DNA of 64,000 bases from Desulfomonilia bacterium (GCA_050014195.1 JBEKDT010000019.1:1-64000), one strand, 5' to 3'; counted from the first letter of the stretch, positions 6,138 through 63,123 are shown. Numbers and translations are program-made. Notes: generated from the letters alone by a model not told the origin.

Positions 6138-6854
6138 ATGAGTGTTGTAGCCGTTATCCCGGCCCGTTATGCATCGTCGCGTTTTCCCGGCAAACCGCTT
6201 GTCGATATCGCAGGGAAGCCTATGATCATGAGGATCTATGAGCAGGTAGCTGCCTGCGGGGAGATCGACAAAGTGCTCATTGCCACCGACGATGCGAGAA
6301 TACGGGATGCCGTGGAGGCATTCGGCGGGCAGCCGGTCATGACAAGCCCCGAGTGCCCTTCGGGCACCGACCGGGTTGCCCAGGCAATCTCGGGCCTGGA
6401 TGCCGACTATGTTGTCAATGTCCAGGGCGACCAGGTGATCCTCGACATCGATGCCCTTGCAGGGCTCGTCCGAGAGCTTAAAGCCGGAGCCGCCATGGCC
6501 ACCATCGCAACAAGGGCCTTACCGGAGGATAAAGATGACCCGAACTGTGTAAAGGTGGTGTGTGACCTTAAGGGTAATGCGTTGTATTTTTCCCGGTCTC
6601 CCATCCCTTATTTCCGCAACACAGGGCATGTGGAGATGCTCAAGCACATAGGTATCTACGGGTTTTCCCGGAATACCCTCCTCAGGTTTACAAGCCTTCC
6701 GCCATCTTATCTTGAACAGGCCGAATCGCTGGAGCAGCTGAGGGCTCTGGAAAACGGCATATCCATCAGGGTAATCATCGCTCGAGGCGAATTCTTCGAG
6801 ATCAACACCCCGCAAGACCGTGAAAGGCTCCTCACCCAATGGCGTCCCTCATGA
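6138..6854 (+). CDS. kdsB: 3-deoxy-manno-octulosonate cytidylyltransferase
   Basis: IPARYASSRFPGKPL, SGTDR, VNVQGD, ALYFSR and LEQLRALENG motifs. Confidence 0.95.
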   Translation: MSVVAVIPARYASSRFPGKPLVDIAGKPMIMRIYEQVAACGEIDKVLIATDDARIRDAVEAFGGQPVMTSPECPSGTDRVAQAISGLDADYVVNVQGDQVILDIDALAGLVRELKAGAAMATIATRALPEDKDDPNCVKVVCDLKGNALYFSRSPIPYFRNTGHVEMLKHIGIYGFSRNTLLRFTSLPPSYLEQAESLEQLRALENGISIRVIIARGEFFEINTPQDRERLLTQWRPS

Positions 6855-13787: not shown

Positions 13788-14378
13788 ATGAGGGGTGAAG
13801 AAAAATATCGCATGATATTGAATGCTGCAAAACAGGTGTTCGCAATGGAAGGTTTCTATAACTCCAAGGTGTCTGAGATCGCCCGTGAGGCCCATGTGGC
13901 TGACGGAACCATATACCTCTATTTTAAGAACAAGGACGACATCCTGATTTCACTTTTTGAAGAAGAGCTCACCAGGATTATCAAGACAGTGAAGACGGAT
14001 TTGGATACCATCAACGATCCGCGCCAGAAACTGATAAAATTCTGCGACAACCATCTCACCATCGTAGAGGCCGACAGGGCCCTGGCAGAGGTTATACAGG
14101 TCGAGCTCAGACAATCGAATAAATTCATGCGGGAATACAAGAACAAGCATTTTCTCGCATATCTCAATATCATTGCGGACATCGTTGCCCAGGGCCAGCA
14201 GCAGGGCGTATTCAGGGAAGACCTCAAGCCCGAGCTTTGCGCCAGGATTATCTTTGGTTCATTGGATGAGCTTTCCACATACCTGGTAACAGCCAAGCGC
14301 AAGCGTTTCGATGTCCATGAAGTGGCGACAATGGTGGGGAACTCCTTCCTCAACGGGCTTGTGAAGGAGAATAATTAA
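13788..14378 (+). CDS. TetR family regulator, FadR(YsiA)-like
   Basis: IAREAHVADGTIYLYFKNKDDILISLF HTH and QVELRQS motif; lies in a beta-oxidation operon. Confidence 0.88.
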   Translation: MRGEEKYRMILNAAKQVFAMEGFYNSKVSEIAREAHVADGTIYLYFKNKDDILISLFEEELTRIIKTVKTDLDTINDPRQKLIKFCDNHLTIVEADRALAEVIQVELRQSNKFMREYKNKHFLAYLNIIADIVAQGQQQGVFREDLKPELCARIIFGSLDELSTYLVTAKRKRFDVHEVATMVGNSFLNGLVKENN

Positions 14379-14402
14379 TCGCTTTGAGGAGATTTTTAAG
14401 CC

Positions 14403-16379
14403 ATGCAGATTAAGAAGGCCGCTGTCATCGGTGGTGGGGCCATGGGTGGCGGGATCGCCCATGTCCTTTCTTCGGTGGGTATCGAGTGCTTCATCAAGGA
14501 TGTCGAGCAGAAGTTCGTTGATAAGGCCCTTGCGACCTCCAAGGCCGTGTATGACAAGCTGGTAGCCAAGGGCAAGCTGGACCCGAAGAAGGCTTCAGCC
14601 GGCCAGAATCTCCTGCGCGGGTCCGTTCAGTATGACAAAAAATTCTTCGGCGAGGTGGATCTGGTAATTGAGGCGGTCCCCGAGATCATGAAGCTCAAAC
14701 AGGTCATTTTCACCGAGCTCGAAAAACTCTGCCCCGAACGGACGATCCTTGCCACAAATACATCCTCGCTCTCTTTGACTGAAATAGCCGGTAAGCTCAA
14801 GAAGAAGGACCGGTTCGTGGGCCTGCATTTCTTTAATCCGGTGCCCATGATGAAACTTCTGGAGATCGTCTATGACGAGAATACTTCTCCTCAGACCTTG
14901 AGCGCCATGATGGAATTCACGCTCTTCATCGACAAGATACCCATCAAGGTGAAGAACGGTCCCGGGTTTGCCGTAAACCGCGTACTCATCCCCTACTTGA
15001 ACGAGGCAGTGCTCTCCCTGATGGACGGCGAGGCCACCATGGAAGAGATCGATGAGGCCATGGTCGCATTCGGCATGCCCCTGGGCCCCTTTGCACTGTG
15101 GGACCTCGTGGGCCTGGATGTAGGCGTGCATGCGTCCGAATCACTTGAAGAGGCGTTCGGTTTAAGGACACCAACACCGGATCTCATGAAGGCCCTGGTG
15201 AAGAAGGGCATGTACGGCCAGAAGACCGGGAAAGGATTTTATACGTATTCCGGCAAGGGGAAAACGCCTTCCAAGGAGGCGGATACCTTCCTGAAAAGCT
15301 GGTGGAAGAAAAACGGTGTCAGCGGGGTTGCATTCTCCCCTGAGCGGCTCATATCCGTGCAGATCAGGGAGGCCCTCATGATCGTATCCGAAGGCCTTGC
15401 ATCCGCCCACGACTGCGACACGGGCATGGTCTACGGCACCAATTTTCCCACCAAGGTCTCCTGGGGCCCGCTCCACTTCGCCGAGGAGAAGGCCACGTGG
15501 TCCATGATCAATGATATCATGTGCGCTCTTGCTGCCGAGTACGGCCCGGAGCGTTTCACCGCACCTGCGATCTTGTCCTCGCTCCTTGAGGGGAAAAGTA
15601 TCTTTGCAAACTGCACATACGAGGTGGATGAATACGGTGTTGCCCTCATGACGGTCGAGAATCCGCCCATGAACGTGCTGAGCATCAAGACCGTAGACGA
15701 CATAACGAATACCGTCCTGGCGGCATGTGCCGACAACCGGGTCCGCGTGATCCTTCTCACCGGCAAAGGGAAGGCATTCGTCGCAGGCGCCAATATCAGC
15801 GAGATCCAGCGCTTGAGAAATATCCACGAGGTGGAAGACTACGCGCACAAGGGCCACCTCATGATGAACACCATAGACGGGGCCGTAAAGCCCGTCATCT
15901 GTGTCATCAACGGGTTCTGCCTTGGCGGAGGACTGGAACTTGCCCTGGCCTGCCACATGCGTATTGCATCCGAGAGGGCACGCCTGGGCCTCCCCGAGAT
16001 CAATTTAGGCATTATGCCGGGGTTCGGCGGGACTCAACGTCTGGCCAGGACCGTCGGCAAGGGCAAGGCCCTGGAGATGATCCTCACAGGCAACCACATC
16101 ACACCTGAGGAAGCCTTGGCAAACGGTCTCGTGAACAAGGTGGTTCCCCAGGATAAACTCATGGATGAGGCGCACGTCCTGGCCGGGACCATTGCAGCCA
16201 AAGGCAGGCTCGCCGTAAGTGCCGCCGTCGATGCGGTATCCTCGGGTCTTGAAGTCGGCCCGGATGAAGGTTTGGAGATCGAGATCGAGAATTTTGCAAG
16301 GGTCGTCATCTCAAAGGATGGGAAAGAAGGGACCGATGCCTTCCAGAACAAGCGCAAACCGGTCTTTAAGGATATGTAA
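14403..16379 (+). CDS. 3-hydroxyacyl-CoA dehydrogenase / enoyl-CoA hydratase fusion (HAD N-terminal, ECH C-terminal)
   Basis: GGGAMGGGIA, LATNTSSL, GLHFFNPV, then GGGLELALAC and GLPEINLGIMPGFGGTQRL. Confidence 0.92.
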   Translation: MQIKKAAVIGGGAMGGGIAHVLSSVGIECFIKDVEQKFVDKALATSKAVYDKLVAKGKLDPKKASAGQNLLRGSVQYDKKFFGEVDLVIEAVPEIMKLKQVIFTELEKLCPERTILATNTSSLSLTEIAGKLKKKDRFVGLHFFNPVPMMKLLEIVYDENTSPQTLSAMMEFTLFIDKIPIKVKNGPGFAVNRVLIPYLNEAVLSLMDGEATMEEIDEAMVAFGMPLGPFALWDLVGLDVGVHASESLEEAFGLRTPTPDLMKALVKKGMYGQKTGKGFYTYSGKGKTPSKEADTFLKSWWKKNGVSGVAFSPERLISVQIREALMIVSEGLASAHDCDTGMVYGTNFPTKVSWGPLHFAEEKATWSMINDIMCALAAEYGPERFTAPAILSSLLEGKSIFANCTYEVDEYGVALMTVENPPMNVLSIKTVDDITNTVLAACADNRVRVILLTGKGKAFVAGANISEIQRLRNIHEVEDYAHKGHLMMNTIDGAVKPVICVINGFCLGGGLELALACHMRIASERARLGLPEINLGIMPGFGGTQRLARTVGKGKALEMILTGNHITPEEALANGLVNKVVPQDKLMDEAHVLAGTIAAKGRLAVSAAVDAVSSGLEVGPDEGLEIEIENFARVVISKDGKEGTDAFQNKRKPVFKDM

Positions 16380-16452
16380 GCTTATAGGGAGAAACAGGGC
16401 CTAAGAGAAAAATGCCCAAAGGATAAAAACACAAAGAGGAAGGAGGTTTAAT

Positions 16453-17229
16453 GTGAATACTGTTGTATGTCTGAAACAGGTACCTGATACCGAGACATTG
16501 ATCAAGATCGCAGGTACATCAATCGCAACAGACGGCATTAAGTGGGTCATCTCTACCTTCGACGAGTTTGCCGTTGAAGAGGCAATCCGCCAGAAGGAGA
16601 AGATGAATGCAGGCACCGTGACCATCGTTACGCTCGGCCCGGACAGGGCGATCGAGTCCATCCGCACTGCTCTGGCCATGGGTGCGGACAACGCAGTGCA
16701 CATCAACGACGCTGCATTCTACGACAAGGCCGATCCCTATGCCACGGCGGCAGTGCTGGCCGCAGCCGTCAAGGGGCTTACCTATGATGCAGTGTTCCTT
16801 GGCAAGCAGGCTATTGATGATGACTGCAGCCAGGTCCCGGCCATGGTCGGCGAGCTGCTCGGGCTGCCGGTAGTGACCCAGGTGCTTAAGTTCGAGGCCG
16901 CTGCCGACAAGAAGAGCGCCACCGTGACCCGCGAGGTCGAGGGCGGCCAGACGATTCTGAATGTCCCTCTTCCGGCGGTTTTCTCGGCGCAGAAGGGTCT
17001 GAACGAGCCCCGGTATGCCTCGCTTCCCGGCATCATGAAGGCCAAGAAGAAACCCGTCGACGTGAAAAACGCCGCCGGGCTCGGTGTGAATGCAGGCCCC
17101 ATGACGACCATTAAGGAGATGTCCTTGCCTCCGGCCCGCCAGGCTGGCAAGATCATAGCGGGCGACGATGCAAAGGCCAAGGCGGCTGCTCTTGCAAAGG
17201 CCTTGCATGAAGAAGTTAAGATCATCTAA
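16453..17229 (+). CDS. etfB: electron transfer flavoprotein beta subunit
   Basis: VCLKQVPDT, LAMGAD, GKQAIDDD, NEPRYASLPGIMKAKKK. Confidence 0.95.
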   Translation: MNTVVCLKQVPDTETLIKIAGTSIATDGIKWVISTFDEFAVEEAIRQKEKMNAGTVTIVTLGPDRAIESIRTALAMGADNAVHINDAAFYDKADPYATAAVLAAAVKGLTYDAVFLGKQAIDDDCSQVPAMVGELLGLPVVTQVLKFEAAADKKSATVTREVEGGQTILNVPLPAVFSAQKGLNEPRYASLPGIMKAKKKPVDVKNAAGLGVNAGPMTTIKEMSLPPARQAGKIIAGDDAKAKAAALAKALHEEVKII

Positions 17230-17247
17230 GGTGAGGAGGTGACAGCC

Positions 17248-18216
<969 letters not shown>

Positions 18217-18285
18217 TAAGGGTAAATAGGGGCGGGCGGCATCGTCCGCCCCTCATGCATACAATTCACTTTTTCAGGGGGGGCT

Positions 18286-20436
18286 ATGCACGGTCCAAAG
18301 GGAGAAATTACCAGAGAAGTCTTTTGGAACATCTTAAGTCCTGGTTCCTATACGGAACAGATTATCCTCTATATACTCGCCCTTTCGGCATTCGCGCTGT
18401 TAGGCAGGGCTCTTTACAAAGGAGGGTTCTGGACACGCGTGAAGGTAATGATGAAGGCAACCGGCTCGGAGAGCAACAGGCTCGACGACCCATGGGGCAG
18501 ATTCTGGTTTGCATTCGGTGATGTGTTCGGACACAGGAAGATCCTCAGAGAACCCTATCAGGGCATATTCCATATATTCATCTTTTATGGGTTCATTGCG
18601 CTGACCATCACCACCGCCATCGTGTTTTTCCAGGCGGACATATTATTCCCCATCACGGGCATCTGGTTCATGAAAGGGGCCTTCTATCTCATCATGAAGC
18701 TCTTTGCCAACGTGTTCGGGATGCTGGCCATCATCGGCATCCTCATGGCGCTGTACAGGAGATACGTGATCAGACCGAAATGGCTGGACAATAAGCCTGA
18801 GGACAACATCACTCTGTGGTTCATCCTTGCCATCCTGGTGACCGGTTTCTTCATAGAGGGCTTGAGGATGCAGGCCGTTGAGCTGAATCCGACGAGCATC
18901 ATGTACAAGTATGTGTGGTTCTCTCCCGGCGGCAGGATCGTGGCGTATATCTTCTCGGGCGCGAGCGAGCATTCCATCAGGGGGGTCCATTATCTGCTCT
19001 GGTGGTTCCATGTGCTTATGGCGCTCACCTTCTTCGTATACGTGGGCTATACCAAGCTCATGCACATCTTCATGACACCTGCAAACATCTTCCTCAGGTC
19101 CACGGCACCGGTACCCCCCATCAGGGTCATGCCTCCCGAGATGTTCGAGTGCGCAGAGACCTTCGGCATCCACAACGTGGAGGAATACTCCTGGAAAGAC
19201 CTGTTCGACCAGGAGGCCTGCATGAGATGCGGCAGGTGCGTGGAGGTATGCCCGGCCTTCAATACCGACAAACCGCTCAAGCCCAGGGATGTCATCCAGA
19301 ACATCAGGACCTACATCGAAGAGAAGGCCAAATTCGCCCTCGATGCGGACGGCAACTATCGTATCATCCCGGATGAGGAATATACCGGACCCAAACTCAT
19401 CGGTGACTCCATCGAGAAAGAGACCGCATGGGCATGTACCACCTGTATGGCCTGTGTTGAGGCCTGTCCGTCATATATCCTCCAGTTCCCGAAGCTCATG
19501 GACTTAAGGCGCTATATGGTCATGATGGAGTCCGACTTCGCCCCCGAACTCATGGGTGTGTTCAAGGGGATGGAGAATAACTCCAACCCGTGGAGCATCG
19601 GCGCCCATACACGGGCCGATTGGGCTAAGGACCAGGGTATTCCCCTGCTTTCCGAGAAGAGCAGCTCAGAGTATCTCTTCTACGTGGGCTGTGCAGGTGC
19701 ATTCGACGATCTGAACAAACGCGTAGCCCTGGCTCTCTCGAAGATCTTTGAGGCGGCAGGCCTTGACTATGCAATCTTGGGCACCGAAGAGGGCTGCTGC
19801 GGCGACTCGGCCAAGAAGCTCGGAAACGAGTATATCTACCAGGCCCTGGCAATGGCCAACATCGAGACCTTCAAGGGCTACAATGTGAAGAAGATCATCA
19901 CCCTGTGTCCCCATGGCTTCAATACCCTGAAGTACGATTACAAAGAACTCGGCGGCAACTTCGAGGTCTACCACTACACCGAGATCCTCGATACGCTCAT
20001 CAAGAGCGGCAAGATCAAGATCAAGGAACGCATCAGCGACCTCGGGCCCATTACCTACCACGACTCCTGCTACCTGGGCCGTTACAACAAGGTCTATGAC
20101 CAGCCGCGCGATATCCTCAAAGCAATCAGCACGAGCCCCATGGTGGAGATGGCGAGCAACCACGCCAAGAGTTTCTGCTGCGGCGCAGGCGGCGGCAGGA
20201 TGTGGATGGAAGAGCACCTCGGCACCAGAATCAACCAGAAGAGGACAAACGAAGCCCTGGATGCCGGGGCCAAGACGGTCTGCACCGCATGCCCGTTCTG
20301 CTTCACCATGCTCACCGACGGCATCAAGGAGCTTGAGCTCGGCGAGAAGCTCCAGTCGGCGGATATCGCCGTCCTTGTGGCCAGGGCCGCAGGAATAGAC
20401 CTCAAGCCAAAGAAGGCCGAAGGCACAGAGGCCTAA
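18286..20436 (+). CDS. membrane-bound FeS/CCG oxidoreductase (FadF/DUF224, EMO-like)
   Basis: NarI-like membrane domain, two CxxCxxCxxxCP motifs and two CCG domains; directly follows etfBA. Confidence 0.88.
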   Translation: MHGPKGEITREVFWNILSPGSYTEQIILYILALSAFALLGRALYKGGFWTRVKVMMKATGSESNRLDDPWGRFWFAFGDVFGHRKILREPYQGIFHIFIFYGFIALTITTAIVFFQADILFPITGIWFMKGAFYLIMKLFANVFGMLAIIGILMALYRRYVIRPKWLDNKPEDNITLWFILAILVTGFFIEGLRMQAVELNPTSIMYKYVWFSPGGRIVAYIFSGASEHSIRGVHYLLWWFHVLMALTFFVYVGYTKLMHIFMTPANIFLRSTAPVPPIRVMPPEMFECAETFGIHNVEEYSWKDLFDQEACMRCGRCVEVCPAFNTDKPLKPRDVIQNIRTYIEEKAKFALDADGNYRIIPDEEYTGPKLIGDSIEKETAWACTTCMACVEACPSYILQFPKLMDLRRYMVMMESDFAPELMGVFKGMENNSNPWSIGAHTRADWAKDQGIPLLSEKSSSEYLFYVGCAGAFDDLNKRVALALSKIFEAAGLDYAILGTEEGCCGDSAKKLGNEYIYQALAMANIETFKGYNVKKIITLCPHGFNTLKYDYKELGGNFEVYHYTEILDTLIKSGKIKIKERISDLGPITYHDSCYLGRYNKVYDQPRDILKAISTSPMVEMASNHAKSFCCGAGGGRMWMEEHLGTRINQKRTNEALDAGAKTVCTACPFCFTMLTDGIKELELGEKLQSADIAVLVARAAGIDLKPKKAEGTEA

Positions 20437-53746: not shown

Positions 53747-54451
53747 CTATTTGATCAGCCCCTGGACCCTGGAGCGCTCGACGATGAGCCCCCGCTGCTT
53801 GCTGCCTGTTATATCCAAGTTCCGGGCCTGGACCAGGGTCAGGTCCACTTGGTCGAGCAGAGAATTTGTAATACGTACATCCTCCATGACAGCCCCTGTC
53901 AACGAAGCAAGGGTGAGGTTCGATTTGTTCAGTGAGGTGTGCACGATATAGGAAAGCCCGAAGTTTGCCTGTGTAAGGTCGCATTCGTCAACAATGCAGT
54001 TTTCTATGAGGCAGAAGAGGAACCTTGTCTTCTGGAGCCTGGCACCGGTGAGGTCGATGTTTTTGAGCGTGGAGTGGGTGAAGGTTGCGCCCTCGAAGTT
54101 TACCTTCTTAAGCTCTTTATCAGTAATGGTGATGCGGACAAGGTGACTGTTCATGAGCGTAATCCTGTTCAAGTTGCACGTGCTCAGGTCAACGTCTTTG
54201 AGCGCCACTTCAGAAAGGTGGGTACCCGAAAGGTTCGTATTTTTAAAGATCGTATCCTCGAGGATCGTCCTTTCCAGATGAGATTCCTCGAAGTTGGTGT
54301 CCGTGAGGTTCGTCTTGCTCAGGTCCGAGCCCCTCAAGTTGGCACCGCCCAGGTCCAGACCCGACAGATCAAGCCCCTTGAGGTATTCCCCTTCCACAGG
54401 GGTCCCCATGGATATGGCTTCATAAAGCTTGTCTTTGTCGAACAGGTTCAT
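53747..54451 (-). CDS. pentapeptide repeat protein
   Basis: continuous A(D/N)LxX pentads. Confidence 0.9.
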   Translation of the reverse strand: MNLFDKDKLYEAISMGTPVEGEYLKGLDLSGLDLGGANLRGSDLSKTNLTDTNFEESHLERTILEDTIFKNTNLSGTHLSEVALKDVDLSTCNLNRITLMNSHLVRITITDKELKKVNFEGATFTHSTLKNIDLTGARLQKTRFLFCLIENCIVDECDLTQANFGLSYIVHTSLNKSNLTLASLTGAVMEDVRITNSLLDQVDLTLVQARNLDITGSKQRGLIVERSRVQGLIK

Positions 54452-55881
54452 TCGCCTGACTCCAATACCTTCTTGACATCGGAGACTAGTGCGAACTCCG
54501 CCTCCGTGATTTGGCCTTCTTTGAGGTAGAAGTGCACGCCGTTCTGTGCACCCGTAATTATCTTGCTTGCCATACCGATGTAGATGTTGGTGCGCTCATG
54601 GACGGTCCCCTCGATGTAGATGTTGCCCTGGTAGGTCTTATGGATCTTTTCAACGATCTCCATTATCTTGGCATTCTGCTGGGTAAGGGTAAGCCTGAGT
54701 GTCTCTATGGTATCGAGGATCTTGTTATAGAGCATTTCCTGTTGCCTGCTCAGTTCGCTGGTGGCTTTGAGCACCCTCAATTTTGAAAGGGATGACTGGA
54801 GCTTGAGCAAGTCCTCAATCTTCTCGGCGATTTCCTCTTTGATCCGATTCTGCTCCTGGTGAAGTATCGGGCTATGGCCGATACTGAGCTCCGTTTCAAC
54901 ACCTGCATCCTCCTGGCCGGCGGTATGGCAATAGATCCAGCAATCCGAGGAGACCTTGCTTGTAGCAATAAAGCCGTTGGCATTTTTAATTACGACCGGG
55001 CCTATTGCCGAGACCAGGCTGTTGCGGATATAATCATTCACGACGATCTCTTTTTCCGATTTCACATGGGCATCCTGGATGAATTTGGTGTGGATGTTCC
55101 CATTTGCCGTAATGATAGCCTTTTCCTGACCGAGGATTCCACCGGCTATCTTAATATTGCCTCCGGCCTCCAGCACCACCCTGCCCACCGTGGTGGCTAT
55201 GGTGATGTCTTCGTTGGCATGGATCTCGTAACCGTCGCCGACCTCTCCCTGAACCACGACGGATCCGTTGAAACGGATGTTACCCACCGATGCATCCACA
55301 TCATGCACCACATAGCAAGGCTCTACGTTCACGGCGTTTTCCAGCCAGAGGACCATGCCGTCAATGGCGGAATACATATGATTCCTGTCAGCCGAGGTCG
55401 TCACGTTCTTCCCTGACGGAAGCTTTGCCTCTTTTCCCGGCTTACTCGGCAGCTCCTCTCCTTTAACGCTCATGCCGGACTTGCCGGATATGGGGAGGAT
55501 AAGCTCGCAGAGGATGTCGCCCTTCTTTACGTTCTGGATAAGATGCAGGTCCCTCAGGTTCACCTTGCCGGATGCATCTTCCGTGATGTGTGCCTTGGTG
55601 CGCTCGGTATTGAAGTGGAATCTGATGGAGCCGTCTTTCCCTTCTTCAGGTTTCTCACCTCTTGCGATGATGACCCATTGGTTGAAGACATTTAGGCGAA
55701 CGAGTTTCTCGACCTCCTCGGGGACGACTCCGAAGATGATCCCATCCTCCTGGATGGCCTTGAGCAGTTCCTCGACATTGAGGCCGGACACCTCCGGCGA
55801 TGCCGGGATGATCTTCATGGATGCTACAAGTCCACCCTCGGTGATACTGAACTCGACGCTATAATCCTTATCCACAAGCAT
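54448..55881 (-). CDS. FapA (DUF342) family protein
   Basis: IARG..P..GKDG, V.KGDIL, DVD.SVGNI.F.GSV.V.G.V. Confidence 0.88.
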   Translation of the reverse strand: MLVDKDYSVEFSITEGGLVASMKIIPASPEVSGLNVEELLKAIQEDGIIFGVVPEEVEKLVRLNVFNQWVIIARGEKPEEGKDGSIRFHFNTERTKAHITEDASGKVNLRDLHLIQNVKKGDILCELILPISGKSGMSVKGEELPSKPGKEAKLPSGKNVTTSADRNHMYSAIDGMVLWLENAVNVEPCYVVHDVDASVGNIRFNGSVVVQGEVGDGYEIHANEDITIATTVGRVVLEAGGNIKIAGGILGQEKAIITANGNIHTKFIQDAHVKSEKEIVVNDYIRNSLVSAIGPVVIKNANGFIATSKVSSDCWIYCHTAGQEDAGVETELSIGHSPILHQEQNRIKEEIAEKIEDLLKLQSSLSKLRVLKATSELSRQQEMLYNKILDTIETLRLTLTQQNAKIMEIVEKIHKTYQGNIYIEGTVHERTNIYIGMASKIITGAQNGVHFYLKEGQITEAEFALVSDVKKVLESGE

Positions 55882-56042: not shown

Positions 56043-56702
56043 ATGAACATCCGCGACATAGAAAAGCTTACCATCAAGGGGTTCCTGGATGCCAGGGAGG
56101 GCAGGGCGCTCCATGAACTGGCCCTTGATGCAAGCAAGCACGGGCCCGTGCTTGAAATCGGGGGCTATTGCGGGAAATCCACACTCTATCTTGGTCTTGC
56201 ATGCAAGAAAACTGGCGGCATCCTTTTCTCTATTGACCACCACAGGGGCTCTGAAGAGCAGCAACCGGGGCAGGAGTACTTCGACCCCGAACTCTATGAT
56301 GAAAAGGAAGGAAAGATAGACTCATTCCGCCTCTTCCGCAGGGCCATCGAGCTCTCAGACCTGCTGGAAACCGTAGTGCCCATGGTTACCACATCCGCTG
56401 TGGCGGTGCGCATGTGGTCAACCCCCCTTTCGATGGTCTTCATAGACGGCTCCCACACCTATCCATCGGCATTTTCCGACTATATTTCGTGGTCTTCCCA
56501 CCTATTACCCGGCGGCATCCTTGCTATCCATGACATCTTCCCGGACCCGGCAAAAGGCGGCCAGGCCCCGCATTACATCTATACACTCGCCGCCGCATCC
56601 GGTTTGTATGAAGAATTATCCATGGTCAAGACCCTTGGGGTGCTGAAGAAGAGGGGGCCTTCGGATATACCCCGGGAGCTCTTTTCAAAACGTGATTGGT
56701 AG
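56043..56702 (+). CDS. meT1: class I SAM methyltransferase (Methyltransf_24), MeT1-like 1-O-methyltransferase
   Basis: GF....EG.AL, EIG.YCGKST, IDHH.GSEE.QPG.EY.DP, FIDG.H, HD.FPDP..GGQAP motifs as I recall them from mycobacterial MeT1. Confidence 0.75.
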   Translation: MNIRDIEKLTIKGFLDAREGRALHELALDASKHGPVLEIGGYCGKSTLYLGLACKKTGGILFSIDHHRGSEEQQPGQEYFDPELYDEKEGKIDSFRLFRRAIELSDLLETVVPMVTTSAVAVRMWSTPLSMVFIDGSHTYPSAFSDYISWSSHLLPGGILAIHDIFPDPAKGGQAPHYIYTLAAASGLYEELSMVKTLGVLKKRGPSDIPRELFSKRDW

Positions 56703-58277
56703 GGTGTCCACGTCCTTGTTGTGGGTCCAGTAGTAGGTGAATGTACTCTCAGAGAGCTTGTACCGGAGATATCCCGCATCAAAGAAGCCCTTTATTATCC
56801 TGTGGGCGAAGGCTTCATCAGTGCCGGTCTTATGGGCAACCGAGACTGACAGGAGCATAATGGGATCGGAACCGTTTCGTGATTCGCAAGTACTTTCCTC
56901 GATAATATCTTCCGATAGAATCCTGTAGACGAGGTTCATCTTACGATGGCCTTCCACCAAAAGGTACTCATGGTCGGAGCAGGTACCTGCCCGATGACGA
57001 TCCAAGGTCTCCTTCCAGACGTTCTCATTGTACCGGTCATATTCTGCTACAAAGGCGCTCATTTCTTCCGGGTTGAGCTTTGATGTCTTCACGATCGGAG
57101 AGTTGGCGTCGTACAGGCTCCAGTCATCGGTGAGGATCTCGATGTCGTAGTTTTCAAGCTCTTCACGTACCGTAGTGCCGGGGAAGGGGGCGAAGAAGTG
57201 GTAGCCATAAGATATGTCCAGTTCATTGGCAAAGAGCTGTGTCTCGGCAAGCGTCTCTTTTGTCTCACCCGGCAGGCCAACCATGAAGGATGCATGCGGG
57301 AGGATGTCCGCCTCCTTGCAACATCGCACGGCATTTCGGGCCTGCTCAAGGGTTATGCCCTTGCGGATCCGTTTGAGCATCTCGGGGTTTCCTGATTCTA
57401 TACCGAAGCTTACACAGTCGCAGCCGGTTTCCCGCATGATCTTCAGTGTCTCAAGGTCTACGGTGTTCACCCTGGCAAAGGCGGTCCAGCCGAAGTTGAC
57501 GCCCCTGCGTTTTATCTCGTTGCAGAGCTCCCTGACCCGGGCCTTGTTGGCGGTGAACAGGTCGTCTGCAACATTGATCCTTGTGAAACCAAGATCAAGG
57601 ATGTGTTCGATCTCGTCCACTACGAGCGAAGGGTTTCTGAAGCGGCCCTTGAACCCCACCATACGCCTGCCCAGACAGAAGATGCACCTGTTGGGGCACC
57701 CCCTGCTCGTAATGATGCTTACCGGATAGCCCAGGGCCTGGTAGCGGGATATGGGCAGCAGGTGCCTGGCGGGAAGCGGCAGGCTGTCAAGGTCACAGAT
57801 GAGCTCCCGGGATTCGGTGATTACGACCCCATCATTGTCCTTATAGGCAATGCCCTTGATGCCCTGCCATGCCTTCTTATCATCCAGTACGGGGATGAGC
57901 TCTTGAAGCGTCTGCTCGCCTTCGCCTACTACGATGAGATCCAGCTCAGGACAGGTTTTAAAGGTGCCGTGAATATCAAAAGATACGTGCGGCCCGCCCA
58001 TCATGGTGATGACCGACGGCCTGAAGCGCTTTGCGTCCTTGATGATACGCTCGGCTTGGTTATGGATCATGGTCACCGAACTCGCACCCACCACGTCGGG
58101 CTTGAAGGCGGAGAGCATGGCTTCAAGCTTTTCAGGGGTATACCTGCTCACGATATAATCGAAGATGCGCACCGTTGCCCCTGCGGCCTCGCATGCGGCT
58201 GCTGCGTAGGCAAGGCCCAACGGCGGGGAGGGGGCCTCTTCAAGGGGATACGGTGTGGCGATAAGTGCGACTCTCAT
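56685..58277 (-). CDS. B12-binding radical SAM protein
   Basis: PPLGLAY and GGPHVS cobalamin domain; SRGCPNRCIFC; FGIESG; GLPGET. Confidence 0.92.
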   Translation of the reverse strand: MRVALIATPYPLEEAPSPPLGLAYAAAACEAAGATVRIFDYIVSRYTPEKLEAMLSAFKPDVVGASSVTMIHNQAERIIKDAKRFRPSVITMMGGPHVSFDIHGTFKTCPELDLIVVGEGEQTLQELIPVLDDKKAWQGIKGIAYKDNDGVVITESRELICDLDSLPLPARHLLPISRYQALGYPVSIITSRGCPNRCIFCLGRRMVGFKGRFRNPSLVVDEIEHILDLGFTRINVADDLFTANKARVRELCNEIKRRGVNFGWTAFARVNTVDLETLKIMRETGCDCVSFGIESGNPEMLKRIRKGITLEQARNAVRCCKEADILPHASFMVGLPGETKETLAETQLFANELDISYGYHFFAPFPGTTVREELENYDIEILTDDWSLYDANSPIVKTSKLNPEEMSAFVAEYDRYNENVWKETLDRHRAGTCSDHEYLLVEGHRKMNLVYRILSEDIIEESTCESRNGSDPIMLLSVSVAHKTGTDEAFAHRIIKGFFDAGYLRYKLSESTFTYYWTHNKDVDTLPITF

Positions 58278-58290
58278 ATTTGTCCTTTAA

Positions 58291-59010
58291 TCACCTTTCT
58301 TGAGGAAGAATAATCGATTTCAGCCAATATAAAATGGTGTTGTCTTTGAGCATGTCCCTGTCGATCCCGATGATGTCTCTTTCAAGCTTATCCGGGTCGG
58401 AAAACCATTCGGCCCTGGTCTTCATGGGTTCATCCGGATCGAGCTTTTTTATGACCTTTGCGGGGTTGCCAGCGGCTATTGTATAGGCCGGGATGTCCCG
58501 CGTTACCACCGAGCCTGCGCCGATGATGCTGTTGTCCCCGATAGTAACCCCTTTGCAGACAATGGAACTGTCGCCCAGCCAGACATTGTTGCCGATGGTG
58601 ACCGGGCTGGTGGCGCCGATGTAGTCGAGCCTGTCGTAGATGCCGTGCCAGTCGGAATCGGTGATGTAGACGCTGCTTGCCATCATGCAGCTATCGCCGA
58701 TGGTGATCCCGGTGGCGGCGCTCATGCGGACGCCCGGGCAGATGAGGCTGTACTTGCCGATGCTGATGAATCCGTCACCCTCTTTCTTGCCCCAAACGGT
58801 AAGCCTTACCCGGTGATCGGGTGTGGTGATGACGTTGGCAAAGTCACCCAGGTCGATGGGCCAGCCGAAGACCTGAACATGCCATGGCTTCATGAACGTG
58901 CAGCCCGTACCCATATGGCGGAACTGGGGACGGAGGAAGTGCCCTGCGTACCACTCGCGGAATTTCAGGTCGAGTCGCTTGAGGTAGTATGGACGGTAAT
59001 CCCTGCGCAA
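58291..59010 (-). CDS. hexapeptide-repeat acyltransferase
   Basis: ITDSDWH, PVTIGNNVWLG...CKGVTIGDNSIIGAGSVVT.DIP....AGNPA. Confidence 0.9.
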   Translation of the reverse strand: MRRDYRPYYLKRLDLKFREWYAGHFLRPQFRHMGTGCTFMKPWHVQVFGWPIDLGDFANVITTPDHRVRLTVWGKKEGDGFISIGKYSLICPGVRMSAATGITIGDSCMMASSVYITDSDWHGIYDRLDYIGATSPVTIGNNVWLGDSSIVCKGVTIGDNSIIGAGSVVTRDIPAYTIAAGNPAKVIKKLDPDEPMKTRAEWFSDPDKLERDIIGIDRDMLKDNTILYWLKSIILPQER

Positions 59011-59014
59011 GGTG

Positions 59015-60148
59015 CTATGCCCTCATGTCAAAAGCGTCAGAATAAAACGCCTTCTTGATGCTGAAGATGGGGTGATACTTCTTGAGGAATCGATACATGT
59101 GGGATTTTGCGTCTTCACCGGAGGCCCAGAATGAGTGGTTGAAGAGCTGGGAAGCCGGCGTGATGTGGTAGATAGCATCCGTCGCCATCATCACGGCAGC
59201 ATTTGTCCAGGTGAGCTTCTCTTCGGGCCAGATGACCATGTCGGGGAAGGTGAATCCGCACCAGAATGTGTTGTCGTCGTGCTTCTTGTTTTTTATCCAG
59301 CTTAAAACCGCCCCGGCCTTCTCGATGTCGCCCATGGCGGCAAGTGTCAGGATAAGTTCAGAGGTCTCGGCAATGGTAACCCAGGGATTGTCGGAAACGC
59401 ACCTTGTGCCGAGCCCTTCCACCATGAACTTGTTCCAGGACTTCTCGATGCGTTTTTTTGCTTCACTTTCCGTAACAGCGCCGCAGAGCACGGGGTAGAA
59501 CCAGTCCATGGAAAAACGCGACTTGGTGCGGTCGAAAAGGTGGGGGCGGTAGCGTAGCGCATCCCCCAGTCTCTTCAGGGCCCACTGCCACCTCGGCTTG
59601 CTTTCTCCAAGCAGCAGGGCCAGGACCAGTGCGCACTTGAGGCTCATGAAGATGGAGCTGCACGCGGTGAGCAGGGCCACCGGGTCTTTGGTGCCATGGG
59701 GGCTTCTGGCCCAGTAAACCTCGCCGCCCGGGGCCTGGAGGTCAACTGCAAAATCGATCCCGGCACAGATCGTGGGCCATATGTACTCAAGAAACGGCCT
59801 GTCATGCGTGATGAGGTAGTAGTGGAATACGCCGACAGCGATGTAGGATGACATGTTGGATTCTCTTGTGAGGTCTAAAGGGTTTCCGTCCCTGTAGGCG
59901 GAGTACCAGGCCCCGTCTTCGAGCTGGGTGGATGCAAGCCATTCGAAGGCCTTGCGGGCCTCTTCATAATAACCGCCGATGGTAAGCCCGATGGCCGCCT
60001 CCACATGATCCCACGGATCGGTCTTCCCGCCGGCGTGCCAGGGTATCTCGCCTGTCGGCCTCTGCTCTGCGGCGATTGCATCGGCCAGGGCCTCGATATC
60101 GAAGGGAAGGGCCAGCATTGAGTGGGAAGGGGAAGCATCACGTTCCAT
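59015..60148 (-). CDS. (alpha/alpha)-barrel 'prenyltransferase-like' protein, MmpH-like glycoside hydrolase candidate
   Basis: GEIPW..G...DPWDHVEAA, Q..DG.W, FSMDWFYP, PWVT.AET.E, WP.E..TWT; co-operonic with MTase and GT4. Confidence 0.65.
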   Translation of the reverse strand: MERDASPSHSMLALPFDIEALADAIAAEQRPTGEIPWHAGGKTDPWDHVEAAIGLTIGGYYEEARKAFEWLASTQLEDGAWYSAYRDGNPLDLTRESNMSSYIAVGVFHYYLITHDRPFLEYIWPTICAGIDFAVDLQAPGGEVYWARSPHGTKDPVALLTACSSIFMSLKCALVLALLLGESKPRWQWALKRLGDALRYRPHLFDRTKSRFSMDWFYPVLCGAVTESEAKKRIEKSWNKFMVEGLGTRCVSDNPWVTIAETSELILTLAAMGDIEKAGAVLSWIKNKKHDDNTFWCGFTFPDMVIWPEEKLTWTNAAVMMATDAIYHITPASQLFNHSFWASGEDAKSHMYRFLKKYHPIFSIKKAFYSDAFDMRA

Positions 60149-60863
60149 AGGAATCACCTTTCTTCAGATAAAGTACAATGCTCTTGGCAATAAGGGGGTT
60201 CAGCACCCTGTCCAATGCCCGTGTCAGGAGGGGTTTCTTCATGATATCCCATACCAGGAACTTATGGTAGAGCTTCACGGGCAACGCATCGTCATTCTTA
60301 TGACCGACCATGCACTTGATCCACCAGTATGGGCTGTGCAGGGCATGGGCCCAGCCCATGTCGATGCATGTAGTCCCTGCACCCTCGAGCAACTCTATGA
60401 GCTCTTTCTTACGGTAGATCCTTATATGCCCGCCCTTTTCGTTGTGGTAGTCTTGGGAAAGCGCCCAGCAGATACGCTCGGGCAGGTACCTCGGCACGCT
60501 CACCACTAACGATTTCCCGGGCTTGAGCACACGGATGATCTCTTGAATTGCCTTCCCATGGTCAGGGATGTGTTCGAGCACCTCCGAGCAGATCACGATG
60601 TCAAACGACTCGTCTGCAAACGGCAGTTTCGTGACGTCGCTCACCATGACAAGCGCAGAGCCCCCGCCATCTTCACCCTCATGCCGCATGATCTTGGTGG
60701 TATTGTGGGCCTTGAGCGCATCGTCCTTGTTCAGGTCGATTCCTACCACACTGACACCCTTGGCGCGGAAGGCCTCGCTCAGGTGGCGTCCGCCTCCGCA
60801 TCCTGCATCGAGCACCTTTGAGCCGGGCTCAAGGTCGAGTTTTGAAAAGTCAACGGTGAGCAA
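60138..60863 (-). CDS. class I SAM methyltransferase (putative sugar O-methyltransferase)
   Basis: MLTVDF, LDAGCGGGRH, LPF.D.SFD..ICSEVLEH, PERICWALS..YH...GGHIRIY, HALHSPYWW.KC. Confidence 0.88.
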   Translation of the reverse strand: MLTVDFSKLDLEPGSKVLDAGCGGGRHLSEAFRAKGVSVVGIDLNKDDALKAHNTTKIMRHEGEDGGGSALVMVSDVTKLPFADESFDIVICSEVLEHIPDHGKAIQEIIRVLKPGKSLVVSVPRYLPERICWALSQDYHNEKGGHIRIYRKKELIELLEGAGTTCIDMGWAHALHSPYWWIKCMVGHKNDDALPVKLYHKFLVWDIMKKPLLTRALDRVLNPLIAKSIVLYLKKGDSYGT

Positions 60864-62145
60864 CGATAGCCTCCCGGTAGACCTCCACCACCTGCTTGGC
60901 GGTATTGTGCCAGGTGAAGTTCTTTCTCACCCTATCGTATCCGGCCTCGGCAAGCCGGGAGCGTTTGGCAGGATTGTCCAGAAGGTCAATGATTGCATCT
61001 TCCAAGGCCTTGGCGTCACCCGGTTTAACAAGTATTCCTGCATCGCCTACCACCTCAGGCAGGGCGCCGCCCGAGGTGCTTATGACAGGCACCTTGCAGG
61101 CCATAGCCTCGCCCGCCGGCAGGCCGAAGCCCTCATAGATGGAGGGGATTACGGCTATTGTGGTCCTGGCGTAATAGTGTGCGAACTCGGAGTCGTCGAT
61201 GCGTCCCGTGAAGGTGATGTAATCGTGTGCATGGAGTCTTTTCACCAATTTGTCGATGACCCCGTCCTTTTTCGGTGCGCCGATGACCGTGAGGTGAATA
61301 TCGCGTTTCTTACGGATGGAGGCAACGGCCTCGATGAGGAAGCGTAAACCTTTCAGGGGTGTGTCGGCGCTGTTGGTGACCATGATGCGGTCATCAAGTC
61401 TCTTTACCCCGGGTAAGGGGTGGAATATGTCCGTATTGATCCCGTTTGCCACTACGCGGAACCGGTCCTTGGGTATGGAGAAGGCGGTACTGATGTCGGA
61501 CTTCGATGCCTCGGATACCGTAATGATATGGGAGAGCCTTCGGGAAACACGGCCCTGCATGCCGAGGAATGAGTACCACCTGCGCACCTTGAGCTTGCGC
61601 CAGAGGGCCTTTTCGGATGCTATCTCTACGTCGCGGTCCACGGTGATAGGGTGATGGATCGTGGCGACAGTCGGTATACCCAAGGCCTTGATGCCGAGGA
61701 TGCCGTATGCCAGGCACTGGTTGTCGTGTACCACGTCATAGCGCTTCACGTTATCCCGCATGAAGTTGAAATAGCGGATACTGTTCGTGAACGGCTCAGG
61801 GAAACCGCCGCTGGAGACTCCGAGCCATTCGAGTATATTAATGGGTGATCTGAGCTCCTTCAGACTCGGGACGCGGAAGAGATCATCCGGATTGTAGAGG
61901 TCGAGGCTCGGCAGCCTATGGAGAGGGATGTCCTCATCAATGGTCGGATAGGGCGGACCCGAGACCACCTCCACATTGTGGCCGAGGTCTTTGAGCGCCC
62001 GGCTCAGCCTCTTGATATAAACCCCCTGGCCGCCGCTGGTGGGTTTCCCGCGATAGGTGAAGAGACAGATGTTCAGGGGAACATCCTTTATTCTTCGCCG
62101 TGCCCCGGGGGAGAAATTTGCTTGGGTTGCTTCAATCGATAACAT
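60850..62145 (-). CDS. GT4 glycosyltransferase, ManT-like
   Basis: YRGKP.SGGQGVY, V.SG.PYP, HDNQ.L, TIHHPITVD, SAD.PLKG, PS.YEGFGLP..EAMAC; start uncertain. Confidence 0.88.
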   Translation of the reverse strand: MLSIEATQANFSPGARRRIKDVPLNICLFTYRGKPTSGGQGVYIKRLSRALKDLGHNVEVVSGPPYPTIDEDIPLHRLPSLDLYNPDDLFRVPSLKELRSPINILEWLGVSSGGFPEPFTNSIRYFNFMRDNVKRYDVVHDNQCLAYGILGIKALGIPTVATIHHPITVDRDVEIASEKALWRKLKVRRWYSFLGMQGRVSRRLSHIITVSEASKSDISTAFSIPKDRFRVVANGINTDIFHPLPGVKRLDDRIMVTNSADTPLKGLRFLIEAVASIRKKRDIHLTVIGAPKKDGVIDKLVKRLHAHDYITFTGRIDDSEFAHYYARTTIAVIPSIYEGFGLPAGEAMACKVPVISTSGGALPEVVGDAGILVKPGDAKALEDAIIDLLDNPAKRSRLAEAGYDRVRKNFTWHNTAKQVVEVYREAIVAHR

Positions 62146-62367
62146 GGCACCAATACATCCTTTGCAGAAAAGTATACCCGGATGCACCTATGCATGCAAT
62201 TCACGGGCGACACAGTATCTTAGCAACTCTGACCTATCAAAGCAAGGAAAATCCTAAAGAATTCTGACGATAGAAACAAGCCCTTGCCGCAATTGTGGTA
62301 TAATAGGTCTTCAGGAATTGGATGCAGTGAAGTTAAGATCCCATGAAACTCTTGTGGAGGGTGTATC

Positions 62368-63123
62368 ATGAAAATGATTTCGGTATCATATCAGGATGCA
62401 GTAGCCATCGTGAAGTTGAGTTCAGGCATCACGAATGCCCTGGATCTGGGACTTGTCAATGAGCTGGATGAAAACCTGGACAGGGTGGAGCAGGACCCTA
62501 ACGTGTGCGGGCTTGTCCTTGGGAGCAGCAGTGATAAATTCTTTTCCATCGGATTCGACATTCAACACATGTTCGACTTCTCAAGGAAAGACTTTGAGAC
62601 ATTTTTCAGGGCGTTCAACCGTGTATGCCTCAGGCTGTATACTCTGCCGAAGCCGACGGCGGCAGCGATTACAGGGCACGCCGTGGCGGGTGGGTGCATC
62701 GTGGTGCTGTGTTGCGATTACCGGTTCATAGGTGATGACAAAAAGTTCATTGGTCTCAATGAGATCAAATTGGGGGTCCCTGTCCCATACCTTGCCGATT
62801 GTATAGTCAGGGATATTGCGGGAACCCGTGTTGCACAGGAGATTATGGAGACCGGAAGGTTCTATGAGCCCCCCGAGTCCCTGCAGATGGGTCTGGTTGA
62901 TGAGGTGGTTCCGGCAGGTGAGGTACTTGACCGTGCAGTGGAGAAAGTAAAATCAATAGGCAGCTGGCCTCAAAAGGCATTTGCCGGGATAAAGCAGAAT
63001 CGGACGGAAGAGATTGCGGCACGGGTACGCACTTTCCAGGAAGAAAAGCATAAGGCGTTCATCGATTGCTGGTATTCCGACGAGGCACGCACGCTGATAA
63101 ACGATGCAATGAAGAAGTTCTAG
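62368..63123 (+). CDS. enoyl-CoA hydratase/isomerase family (Delta3-Delta2 isomerase-like)
   Basis: FFSIGFD, AAITGHAVAGG, IGLNEIKLG, GLVDEVV. Confidence 0.88.
   Translation: MKMISVSYQDAVAIVKLSSGITNALDLGLVNELDENLDRVEQDPNVCGLVLGSSSDKFFSIGFDIQHMFDFSRKDFETFFRAFNRVCLRLYTLPKPTAAAITGHAVAGGCIVVLCCDYRFIGDDKKFIGLNEIKLGVPVPYLADCIVRDIAGTRVAQEIMETGRFYEPPESLQMGLVDEVVPAGEVLDRAVEKVKSIGSWPQKAFAGIKQNRTEEIAARVRTFQEEKHKAFIDCWYSDEARTLINDAMKKF

Follow-up and report, generated by a model that had tools for sequence, protein, structure and literature searches.

A methylmannose polysaccharide-type gene cluster with two conserved, probable tailoring genes in a Gram-negative anaerobe of the Desulfobacterota

Methylmannose polysaccharide (MMP) has so far been seen only in actinobacteria. 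Here, we asked whether a compact locus of an anaerobic Gram-negative Desulfomonilia bacterium, which carries gene counterparts of the MMP system, could encode such a polymer. The locus lies at 56043-62187 of a stretch of 64,000 nucleotides (GCA_050014195.1 JBEKDT010000019.1:1-64000), hereafter the window. We found no published description of a methylmannose polymer or of its gene system outside Actinobacteria and, judged by titles and abstracts, the literature on methylmannose polysaccharide or 3-O-methylmannose holds nothing on Desulfobacterota or Gammaproteobacteria. A Gram-negative envelope is indicated by the CMP-KDO synthetase and KDO transferase genes of the window (6138-8077), and beta-oxidation by its FadB-like, ETF alpha and beta, and CCG/Fe-S membrane oxidoreductase genes (14403-20436), in line with the original prediction, which had described the organism as a Gram-negative fatty-acid oxidiser.

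At this locus, five closely packed minus-strand genes form an operon that encodes, in this order, a GT4 glycosyltransferase, a class I SAM methyltransferase, an (alpha/alpha)6-barrel protein, a hexapeptide acetyltransferase and a B12-binding radical SAM enzyme. The GT4 gene shares 14 nt with the methyltransferase gene, which in turn shares 20 nt with the barrel gene; the next two intergenic gaps are only 4 and 13 nt. A second methyltransferase gene, on the plus strand, is convergent with the operon and shares 18 nt with the 3′ end of the radical SAM gene. The four genes named by the original prediction are thus all in place. Nonetheless, its description of the operon was incomplete: it had overlooked the acetyltransferase (58291-59010) and radical SAM (56685-58277) genes, which separate the barrel gene from the convergent methyltransferase gene.

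We first consider the GT4 protein (60850-62187, minus strand; PF00534 1.4e-34, PF13439 1.3e-24), a ManT-like alpha-(1->4)-mannosyltransferase. Its longest open reading frame begins at a GTG at 62187, but the first in-frame ATG, at 62145, where the original prediction had set its limit, is the more likely start (431 aa). The protein matches ManT from Mycolicibacterium hassiacum (PDB 7qsg) with an E-value of 1.4e-104 (353 bits, residues 38-442), the runner-up reaching 1.3e-27. On the 7qsg alignment, it is identical at nine of the ten residues named in Maranha 2023 (Gly15, His142, Lys240, Asp293, Glu313, Gly314, Phe315, Leu317 and Glu321), the tenth, the backbone contact Leu291, being an isoleucine. 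The residues listed there as mutationally tested, Lys240, Glu313 and Glu321, are all kept, as is Asp293, for which a part in recognising the donor's guanine is proposed (PMC9883506). Elsewhere in the genome, a 356-aa frame (G000:C2:72131-73165), a candidate for the supply of GDP-mannose, resembles mannose-1-phosphate guanylyltransferases; its match is confined to the N-terminal part of TIGR01479 (positions 3-347) and scores 282 bits, below a cut-off of 373 that is set for the bifunctional form.

The barrel protein (59015-60157, minus strand; 380 aa) belongs to no Pfam family. Its sole PDB match is the endo-alpha-(1->4)-mannosidase MmpH from M. hassiacum (7qsj, E 7.4e-101), and on this alignment eight of the nine residues named in Maranha 2023 are identical (Asp47, Trp49, Asp50, Thr163, Met215, Tyr219, Glu262 and Glu265). 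Phe102 is replaced by a methionine, and Asp47, Asp50 and Glu262, given there as mutationally tested, are kept. Across 14 Desulfobacterota sequences, D47, W49, D50, T164, M217, Y221, E264 and E267 are invariant. The gene may start at the ATG at 60148 instead; the Atlas entry for this protein begins at residue 4.

The convergent gene (56043-56702, plus strand; 219 aa; PF13578 3.2e-18) encodes a Methyltransf_24 enzyme, predicted to cap the reducing end as a 1-O-methyltransferase. The original prediction had likened it to MeT1 motif by motif; what is confirmed here is the overall alignment. M. hassiacum MeT1 (6g7d) is its sole PDB match at E <= 0.01 (E 8.4e-54 over 194 residues), with about 46% identity by hand count on the printed alignment. 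Moreover, when the MeT1 of the actinomycete Nonomuraea gerenzanensis was used as a query, it retrieved a single gene of the genome, at 56043-56702 (E 6.5e-59), the four other Methyltransf_24 genes being situated elsewhere.

The operon methyltransferase (60138-60863, minus strand; PF13489 3.2e-24, PF08241), a putative 3-O-methyltransferase that starts with MLTVDF, finds only generic PDB matches (best 2.4e-14). Compared with the Nonomuraea cluster, it shares 49% identity over 236 aa with the product of the gene at the corresponding position, and the two are reciprocal best hits (E 9.9e-72 in this genome, next 5.2e-14). Natural fusions of this methyltransferase with MmpH also exist (P0146 and P0170). 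Synteny and the reciprocal best hit make it an orthologue of the actinobacterial enzyme and hence pMeT3-like; the activity of pMeT3 is described as unproven in mycobacteria too (PMC9883506). Altogether, the complete MMP-like set that had been proposed is borne out, three members by their matches to M. hassiacum structures (ManT, MmpH and MeT1) and the pMeT3-like one by synteny and reciprocal best hit. The survey of synteny across Desulfobacterota that the original prediction had also suggested was positive.

These four genes correspond to MHAS_04402-04405 of M. hassiacum (ManT-pMeT3-MmpH-MeT1), in the order of that locus-tag series as given in PMC9883506. The matches to the three solved structures are strong, specific, near-exclusive and full-length; the published catalytic and donor-binding residues are kept, and cytoplasmic proteins are predicted here. 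The order and orientation are identical in N. gerenzanensis, where ManT-MeT3-MmpH is followed by a convergent MeT1, with 41-49% identity; the Nonomuraea MmpH itself matches 7qsj at 5e-121. In contrast to M. hassiacum, the host here is a Gram-negative Desulfobacterota anaerobe, and conserved acetyltransferase and B12 radical SAM genes are added between MmpH and MeT1.

GT4 enzymes, methyltransferases and hexapeptide acetyltransferases are frequent in surface-polysaccharide loci, and the NCBIfam matches at this locus include WbbJ and WcaF types. One could thus imagine that an exported glycan such as a capsule, an O-antigen or an S-layer glycan is built or modified or, MmpH being a hydrolase, that actinobacterial MMP is scavenged. 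We hold both to be highly improbable. Indeed, none of the six proteins of the locus shows a membrane span or a signal peptide, and the operon is flanked by FapA and enoyl-CoA hydratase genes, with no gene next to it for a flippase, an ABC exporter, a polymerase, a priming transferase or an uptake system. Nor would a locus for catabolism call for a mannosyltransferase and a pair of methyltransferases.

The two overlooked genes raise the question of what they add. The acetyltransferase (58291-59010, minus strand) is a left-handed beta-helix protein with hexapeptide repeats (PF00132 1.3e-14). Its best PDB matches are the maltose (3srt, 2.4e-21) and galactoside (1kqa, 1.9e-20) O-acetyltransferases, so that it resembles sugar 6-O-acetyltransferases, and its His122 is aligned with His115 of LacA, which we take to be the catalytic histidine. 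Streptomyces griseus makes an acetylated MMP (AMMP), according to a figure legend (PMC9883506, Fig. 1); the acetyl esters on that polymer fit a sugar O-acetyltransferase gene, this comparison being one of products.

The radical SAM enzyme (56685-58277, minus strand; PF02310 5.8e-23, PF04055 2.6e-26) has the architecture of class B radical SAM enzymes, with an N-terminal B12-binding domain and a radical SAM core whose CxxxCxxC motif (C194, C198 and C201) is invariant across 31 orthologues. To our knowledge, no radical SAM enzyme is known for S. griseus AMMP. All NCBIfam models stay below their cut-offs, the best being BchE (215 bits against 481), with HpnJ also far below, and neither NCBIfam nor structure comparison yielded a close characterised relative. 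The AF2 model (mean pLDDT 89.4) predicts a Rossmann cobalamin domain at the N-terminus, a radical SAM barrel, and a C-terminal domain made of helices. The top Foldseek matches are TsrM, AprD4, MgmA, CysS, OxsB and TokK. Compared with the TsrM/TokK/OxsB/MgmA class and AprD4, the predicted fold is the same (probability 1.00, TM ~0.6) and the CxxxCxxC motif is present, but sequence identity is merely 16-23%. These structural neighbours include two that are not methylases, the sugar diol dehydratase AprD4 and OxsB.

It could be argued that both enzymes are mere neighbours acting on another substrate and that the product is the plain MMP known from mycobacteria. Of the 45 assessable other Desulfobacterota loci, 20 lack the radical SAM gene, as do all 19 assessable gammaproteobacterial ones, from which we conclude that it is an accessory rather than a core component; in Desulfobacterales, moreover, MmpH and the acetyltransferase gene stand apart from ManT-MeT3-MeT1. 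Against this, both genes are tightly inserted between MmpH and MeT1, and the exact gene order of the window is preserved in all seven closest loci. The five-gene operon is found in the eight other genera sampled within the family (with MeT1 in six of them, one further locus lying at a contig edge and one lacking MeT1), and the six-gene order is also kept in many Syntrophales at 51-60% identity. The acetyltransferase gene adjoins MmpH in 7/7 of the closest loci and in 42 of the 48 assessable other Desulfobacterota loci, following it even where the cluster is split. We therefore find the view of unrelated neighbours quite unlikely and, given these two conserved operon genes, the product is likely to be something other than plain MMP.

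The core set itself is widespread. Within the organism's family, 23 of the 24 other genomes carry MmpH, against none of the 16 from the sister family, and the four core genes are kept together across three phyla. Marine Gammaproteobacteria (Halieaceae, Cellvibrionaceae and Microbulbifer; L066-L087) carry ManT-MeT3-MmpH in 22/22 loci, with a convergent MeT1 in 15 of 19 assessable ones and 42-58% identity to the proteins of the window. Unlike the window, they have the four-gene form: only 3 of 20 assessable loci have the acetyltransferase gene, and none of 19 has the radical SAM gene. A quick tree of MmpH follows taxonomy (SH-aLRT of 98 for the Gammaproteobacteria clade and 95 for the Desulfobacterota clade), which argues for long residence over recent transfer.

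Does this conservation speak for a polymer? The locus might instead yield some other small methylated mannoside or a short oligosaccharide, such as a compatible solute or the head group of a glycolipid, in place of a lipid-binding polymer of 11-14 units, its likeness to the MMP genes reflecting shared chemistry and not a shared product. Identity to the actinobacterial proteins is indeed only about 41-49%, sequence does not reveal chain length or methylation pattern, and with two additional tailoring genes the product must differ somehow. Yet the endo-acting MmpH is kept with its active-site set, apart from the Phe102 position. As described in PMC9883506, MmpH acts on mature chains, from which it releases tetra- to octamannosides, and ManT requires acceptors of more than three mannoses. 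That four genes are kept together in three phyla also fits a monomeric solute less well than a polymer that is recycled, and we regard a small mannoside as an unlikely product.

Altogether, we consider it probable that the locus at 56043-62187 unites true counterparts of the four MMP genes (ManT, pMeT3, MmpH and MeT1) with two conserved tailoring genes, and that the six serve to build and recycle a methylated alpha-1,4-mannan that is cytoplasmic, O-acetylated and probably modified further. By analogy with the mycobacterial enzymes, alpha-1,4-mannooligosaccharide primers would be elongated by ManT with GDP-mannose as donor, the pMeT3-like enzyme would methylate the added mannoses at O-3, and MeT1 would place a 1-O-methyl cap at the reducing end. 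From mature chains, MmpH would release defined oligomers as primers for the next ones, as in the self-recycling scheme proposed in Maranha 2023 (PMC9883506). The hexapeptide transferase would transfer acetyl groups from acetyl-CoA to the polymer, as might be expected from the acetylated MMP of S. griseus, and the B12 radical SAM enzyme would modify it once more, most likely by C-methylation and less likely by deoxygenation. We expect the polymer to remain cytoplasmic.

There, speculatively and by analogy with mycobacterial MMP, it may wrap long acyl chains. The role of an acyl-CoA buffer, which the original prediction had put forward for beta-oxidation, is unsettled even for mycobacteria; a mutant lacking MmpH is reported to grow more slowly at 15 °C (PMC9883506, Discussion). 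More broadly, though we think it rather doubtful, Desulfobacterota anaerobes, including syntrophic degraders of fatty acids and hydrocarbons such as Syntrophus and Smithella, might produce an intracellular polymethylated polysaccharide of a new class. This would be an acetylated methylmannan, C-methylated by the B12 radical SAM enzyme, whose more hydrophobic helix would sequester and buffer long acyl-CoA chains during slow, energy-limited beta-oxidation. If true, such a C-methylated, acetylated methylmannan would be the first case of radical alkylation of a cytoplasmic polysaccharide.

Six closely packed genes occupy the stretch from 56043 to 62187, five of them forming a minus-strand operon. 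The operon opens with a GT4 glycosyltransferase gene (ManT-like, 60850-62187), whose longest open reading frame has a GTG start, the first in-frame ATG at 62145 being the likelier one. It is followed by the genes for a class I SAM methyltransferase (MeT3-like, 60138-60863), a 380-aa MmpH-like protein (59015-60157), a hexapeptide-repeat acetyltransferase (AcT, 58291-59010) and a B12-binding radical SAM protein (rSAM, 56685-58277). The sixth, a Methyltransf_24 gene (MeT1-like, 56043-56702), lies on the plus strand, convergent with the operon, and shares 18 nt with rSAM, the operon's last gene. The GT4 and methyltransferase genes overlap by 14 nt and the methyltransferase and MmpH-like genes by 20 nt; only 4 nt separate the latter from AcT, and 13 nt separate AcT from rSAM. 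These assignments come from Pfam, save that the MmpH-like protein has no Pfam family. None of the six proteins reached the curated cut-off of any NCBIfam model or had an equivalog there, and a scan for promoters and terminators returned no more sites than in shuffled sequence. The original prediction of a methylmannose polysaccharide (MMP) gene set named four of these six genes correctly but overlooked AcT and rSAM, which lie among them.

We searched the window proteins against all PDB sequences, and three of them match MMP enzymes of Mycolicibacterium hassiacum nearly exclusively. The GT4 protein matches ManT (7qsg, E 1.4e-104, 353 bits; runner-up 1.3e-27), the protein without a Pfam family has MmpH as its sole match (7qsj, E 7.4e-101, 341 bits), and the Methyltransf_24 protein has MeT1 as its sole match at E <= 0.01 (6g7d, E 8.4e-54, 186 bits), with about 46% identity over 194 aligned positions by hand count. 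The resemblance to MeT1, ManT and MmpH, first proposed from the sequence, is borne out by these matches to proteins of solved structure, and we regard the three proteins as orthologues. In the ESM Atlas, MmpH was found only in clusters misnamed 'prenyltransferase'. Residues in the PDB alignments were then compared with those listed in Maranha et al. 2023 (PMC9883506). The MmpH-like protein retains Asp47, Trp49, Asp50, Thr163, Met215, Tyr219, Glu262 and Glu265, with Phe102 replaced by Met; the ManT-like protein retains Gly15, His142, Lys240, Asp293, Glu313, Gly314, Phe315, Leu317 and Glu321, with Ile in place of Leu291, described in that paper as a backbone contact to guanine. Among the retained residues are those whose alanine variants are reported there to lose all or most activity, namely Glu262, Asp47 and Asp50 of MmpH and Glu321, Lys240 and Glu313 of ManT.

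The MeT3-like methyltransferase has no solved counterpart in the PDB, its best match being generic (2.4e-14), and it was therefore tested through an actinomycete cluster, found on a Nonomuraea gerenzanensis chromosome filed among plasmids. This cluster comprises ManT, a methyltransferase, MmpH and a convergent MeT1 in the order and orientation of the window, with identities of 46% for ManT, 49% for the methyltransferase, 41% for MmpH and 48% for MeT1; its MmpH matches 7qsj with an E-value of 5e-121. Used as a query, the Nonomuraea methyltransferase recovers the window gene at 9.9e-72, the genome's runner-up standing at 5.2e-14. Its MeT1 recovers the window MeT1-like gene alone in the genome, leaving four further Methyltransf_24 genes unmatched. 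Between MmpH and the convergent MeT1, in the slot taken by AcT and rSAM in the window, the Nonomuraea locus carries a DUF1702 gene (L089:9112-10119; PF08012, E 1.8e-68). The order of the core genes in the window is also that of the M. hassiacum locus tags, which run ManT 04402, pMeT3 04403, MmpH 04404 and MeT1 04405 as given in PMC9883506. Natural fusions of the MeT3-like enzyme with MmpH also exist in the representative library: in P0146 (590 aa) and P0170 (606 aa), the N-terminal ~240 residues align with the window methyltransferase over its whole length at 45-46% identity, and the remainder is MmpH. Two further long MmpH forms, P0167 (740 aa) and P0185 (519 aa), have N-terminal extensions without a Pfam family.

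As regards the two additional genes, AcT is nearest in the PDB to maltose and galactoside O-acetyltransferases (2.4e-21 and 1.9e-20), and its His122 aligns with His115 of LacA, which we take to be the catalytic histidine. Streptomyces griseus is described as producing an acetylated MMP (Maranha 2023, PMC9883506), and there is therefore a precedent for an acetylated product. The rSAM protein has a B12-binding domain and a CxxxCxxC motif that is invariant in an alignment from which one orthologue (L061), interrupted by an in-frame stop, was omitted. The AlphaFold model built with 31 orthologues averages a pLDDT of 89.4, and the closest structural counterparts are TsrM, AprD4, MgmA (9ccb), CysS, OxsB and TokK, with TM-scores of ~0.6 and identities of 16-23%; the ESM Atlas returned only generic B12-rSAM clusters. 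Most of these structural relatives are C-methyltransferases, the exceptions being AprD4, which dehydrates a sugar 1,2-diol, and OxsB, which carries out a ring contraction. C-methylation is the likeliest of the reactions that can be predicted for rSAM.

Counting the window's own genome, 24 of 41 searched genomes have MmpH: it is present in 23/24 other genomes of the family and in 0/16 of the class's sister family. In all eight further genera sampled from the family (8/8 loci), ManT, MeT3, MmpH, AcT and rSAM follow one another in this order, so that the core order, for which a synteny survey had been suggested, is conserved in relatives. MeT1 is convergent in six of these eight loci; one of the others is cut by a contig edge and one has no MeT1 in the stretch. 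Across the phylum, MmpH (E <= 1e-30) occurs in 50/401 genomes and 30/254 genera. In five genomes (G398, G352, G375, G297 and G270), the match is interrupted by a single in-frame stop codon, either TGA or TAA, and three such matches sit inside open frames of ~600 aa; these could be read-through of adjacent genes, or broken or fused forms.

A species-level pattern scan, run on one genome per species with two motifs that are both absent from the M. hassiacum MmpH sequence, matched at least 599 stretches, of which at least 597 were confirmed, in at least 597 species genomes. The best 80 of these at least 599 loci belong to Desulfomonilia, Syntrophales (Smithella and a MAG labelled Syntrophus aciditrophicus), Desulfobacterales, Desulfarculus and Gammaproteobacteria. 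Carriers include named isolates such as Desulfatitalea alkaliphila (Desulfobacterales), which has the split form, and, among Gammaproteobacteria, Pseudohalioglobus lutimaris with four genes, Seongchinamella sediminis, Pseudomaricurvus hydrocarbonicus, and Microbulbifer aestuariivivens with four genes and AcT; the S. aciditrophicus MAG (L043) has the full set of six. Within 1.84 billion representatives, the MmpH family (E <= 1e-30) falls into 269 clusters when grouped at 50% identity. The system is hidden in public annotation because NCBI names MmpH orthologues 'phenyltransferase domain-containing protein'.

Neighbours were scored by tblastn in the best 80 of the at least 599 loci, a neighbour being counted as present at E <= 1e-10, >=38% identity and >=20% coverage within 8 kb of MmpH, and loci too short to judge being excluded from the denominators. 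The seven closest loci have ManT, MeT3, AcT and rSAM in 7/7 and MeT1 in 5/5. The 51 other Desulfobacterota loci have AcT in 42/48, ManT in 24/42, MeT3 in 26/45, rSAM in 25/45 and MeT1 in 16/38. The 22 gammaproteobacterial loci all have ManT and MeT3 (22/22 each), with MeT1 in 15/19, AcT in 3/20 and rSAM in 0/19. Among the loci assessed in this set, rSAM is thus confined to the Desulfobacterota group (32/52 versus 0/19 in Gammaproteobacteria). Desulfobacterales divide the genes between two places, one holding MmpH-AcT and the other ManT-MeT3 together with a convergent MeT1; no rSAM gene adjoins these split sites. Such split loci include L092 (G429:C3:2622000-2638000), L019 and L053, and ~1.3 kb of sequence without an assigned gene separates MeT3 from MeT1.

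A quick maximum-likelihood tree of MmpH was built from 76 rows. Sequences had to reach 35% identity and 70% coverage and contain no stop, as did 75 of the 81 loci that lie beyond the own-genus set; L001-L008, which are near-duplicates with short flanks, and six loci failing on coverage or stops were left out. Gammaproteobacteria form one clade (SH-aLRT 98) and Desulfobacterota another (95), sub-clades track taxonomy, and Nonomuraea sits on a long branch. This pattern is more in keeping with a long residence of the system in these lineages than with its recent acquisition from actinobacteria.

The six proteins carry no typical membrane span or signal peptide as judged from 19-residue Kyte-Doolittle means, the highest of which (2.12) falls within the MmpH barrel. 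The operon's surroundings include no gene for a flippase, an exporter, a polymerase or a priming transferase. Two other readings of the operon, as part of surface-glycan synthesis or as a means of scavenging, were considered and rejected as unlikely. The genome has a mannose-1-phosphate guanylyltransferase-like gene that scores 282 bits, short of the threshold that applies to the bifunctional model.

The operon is flanked by a FapA-family gene and an enoyl-CoA hydratase gene. The former (54448-55881) comes immediately after MeT1 and does so as well in seven related loci (L009, L011, L012, L014 and L094-L096; identity 48-98%), which makes it a conserved neighbour within this lineage. The hydratase gene (62368-63123) is divergent, upstream of ManT, a position retained only in the closest relative, L009 (95%); three Syntrophales loci (L031, L032 and L061) have hydratase-like matches on the opposite strand, which are weak (26-32%) and end some 1-2.4 kb upstream of ManT. 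The window also holds genes for a CMP-KDO synthetase and a KDO transferase, two acetyl-CoA-synthetase-like genes and, at 13788-20436, a beta-oxidation/electron-transfer module. This module consists of a TetR regulator, a FadB-like gene (a hydroxyacyl-CoA dehydrogenase/enoyl-CoA hydratase fusion), ETF beta and alpha, and an oxidoreductase of the membrane CCG/4Fe-4S type, and is of a kind known from syntrophic fatty-acid oxidisers. With the KDO genes, the FadB-like gene, ETF and the CCG/Fe-S oxidoreductase all in the window, describing the organism as a Gram-negative fatty-acid oxidiser was reasonable.

Altogether, the gene-level evidence argues strongly for an MMP-type system. By analogy with the mycobacterial enzymes, the ManT-like protein would extend alpha-1,4-mannooligosaccharides from GDP-mannose, the MeT3-like enzyme would methylate them at O-3, the MeT1-like enzyme would cap the reducing end, and the MmpH-like protein would cut mature chains into primers for new ones. 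Judging from family resemblance, the hexapeptide enzyme may acetylate the product and rSAM may introduce a further radical modification. That the polymer might bind long acyl chains or acyl-CoA during beta-oxidation, along the lines of the carrier or buffer originally proposed, is speculative.

Polymethylated polysaccharides are regarded as peculiar to mycobacteria and a few other actinobacteria. The survey described in Maranha 2023 (PMC9883506) covered actinobacterial genomes only. By titles and abstracts, none of the papers found on MMP and 3-O-methylmannose is about Desulfobacterota or Gammaproteobacteria; wider homologues could be mentioned in the 2019 study of MeT1 or in the Maranha 2023 supplements, where 150 MmpH and 149 ManT homologues are aligned (Figs S7 and S10). 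With orthologous clusters, evidently resident for long, in Desulfobacterota and marine Gammaproteobacteria, MMP would be a widespread bacterial polymer, and the anaerobe-specific rSAM partner points to an undescribed polysaccharide chemistry. Because named isolates carry the genes, the long-standing question of the function of such polymers could be tested outside the mycobacterial cell envelope.
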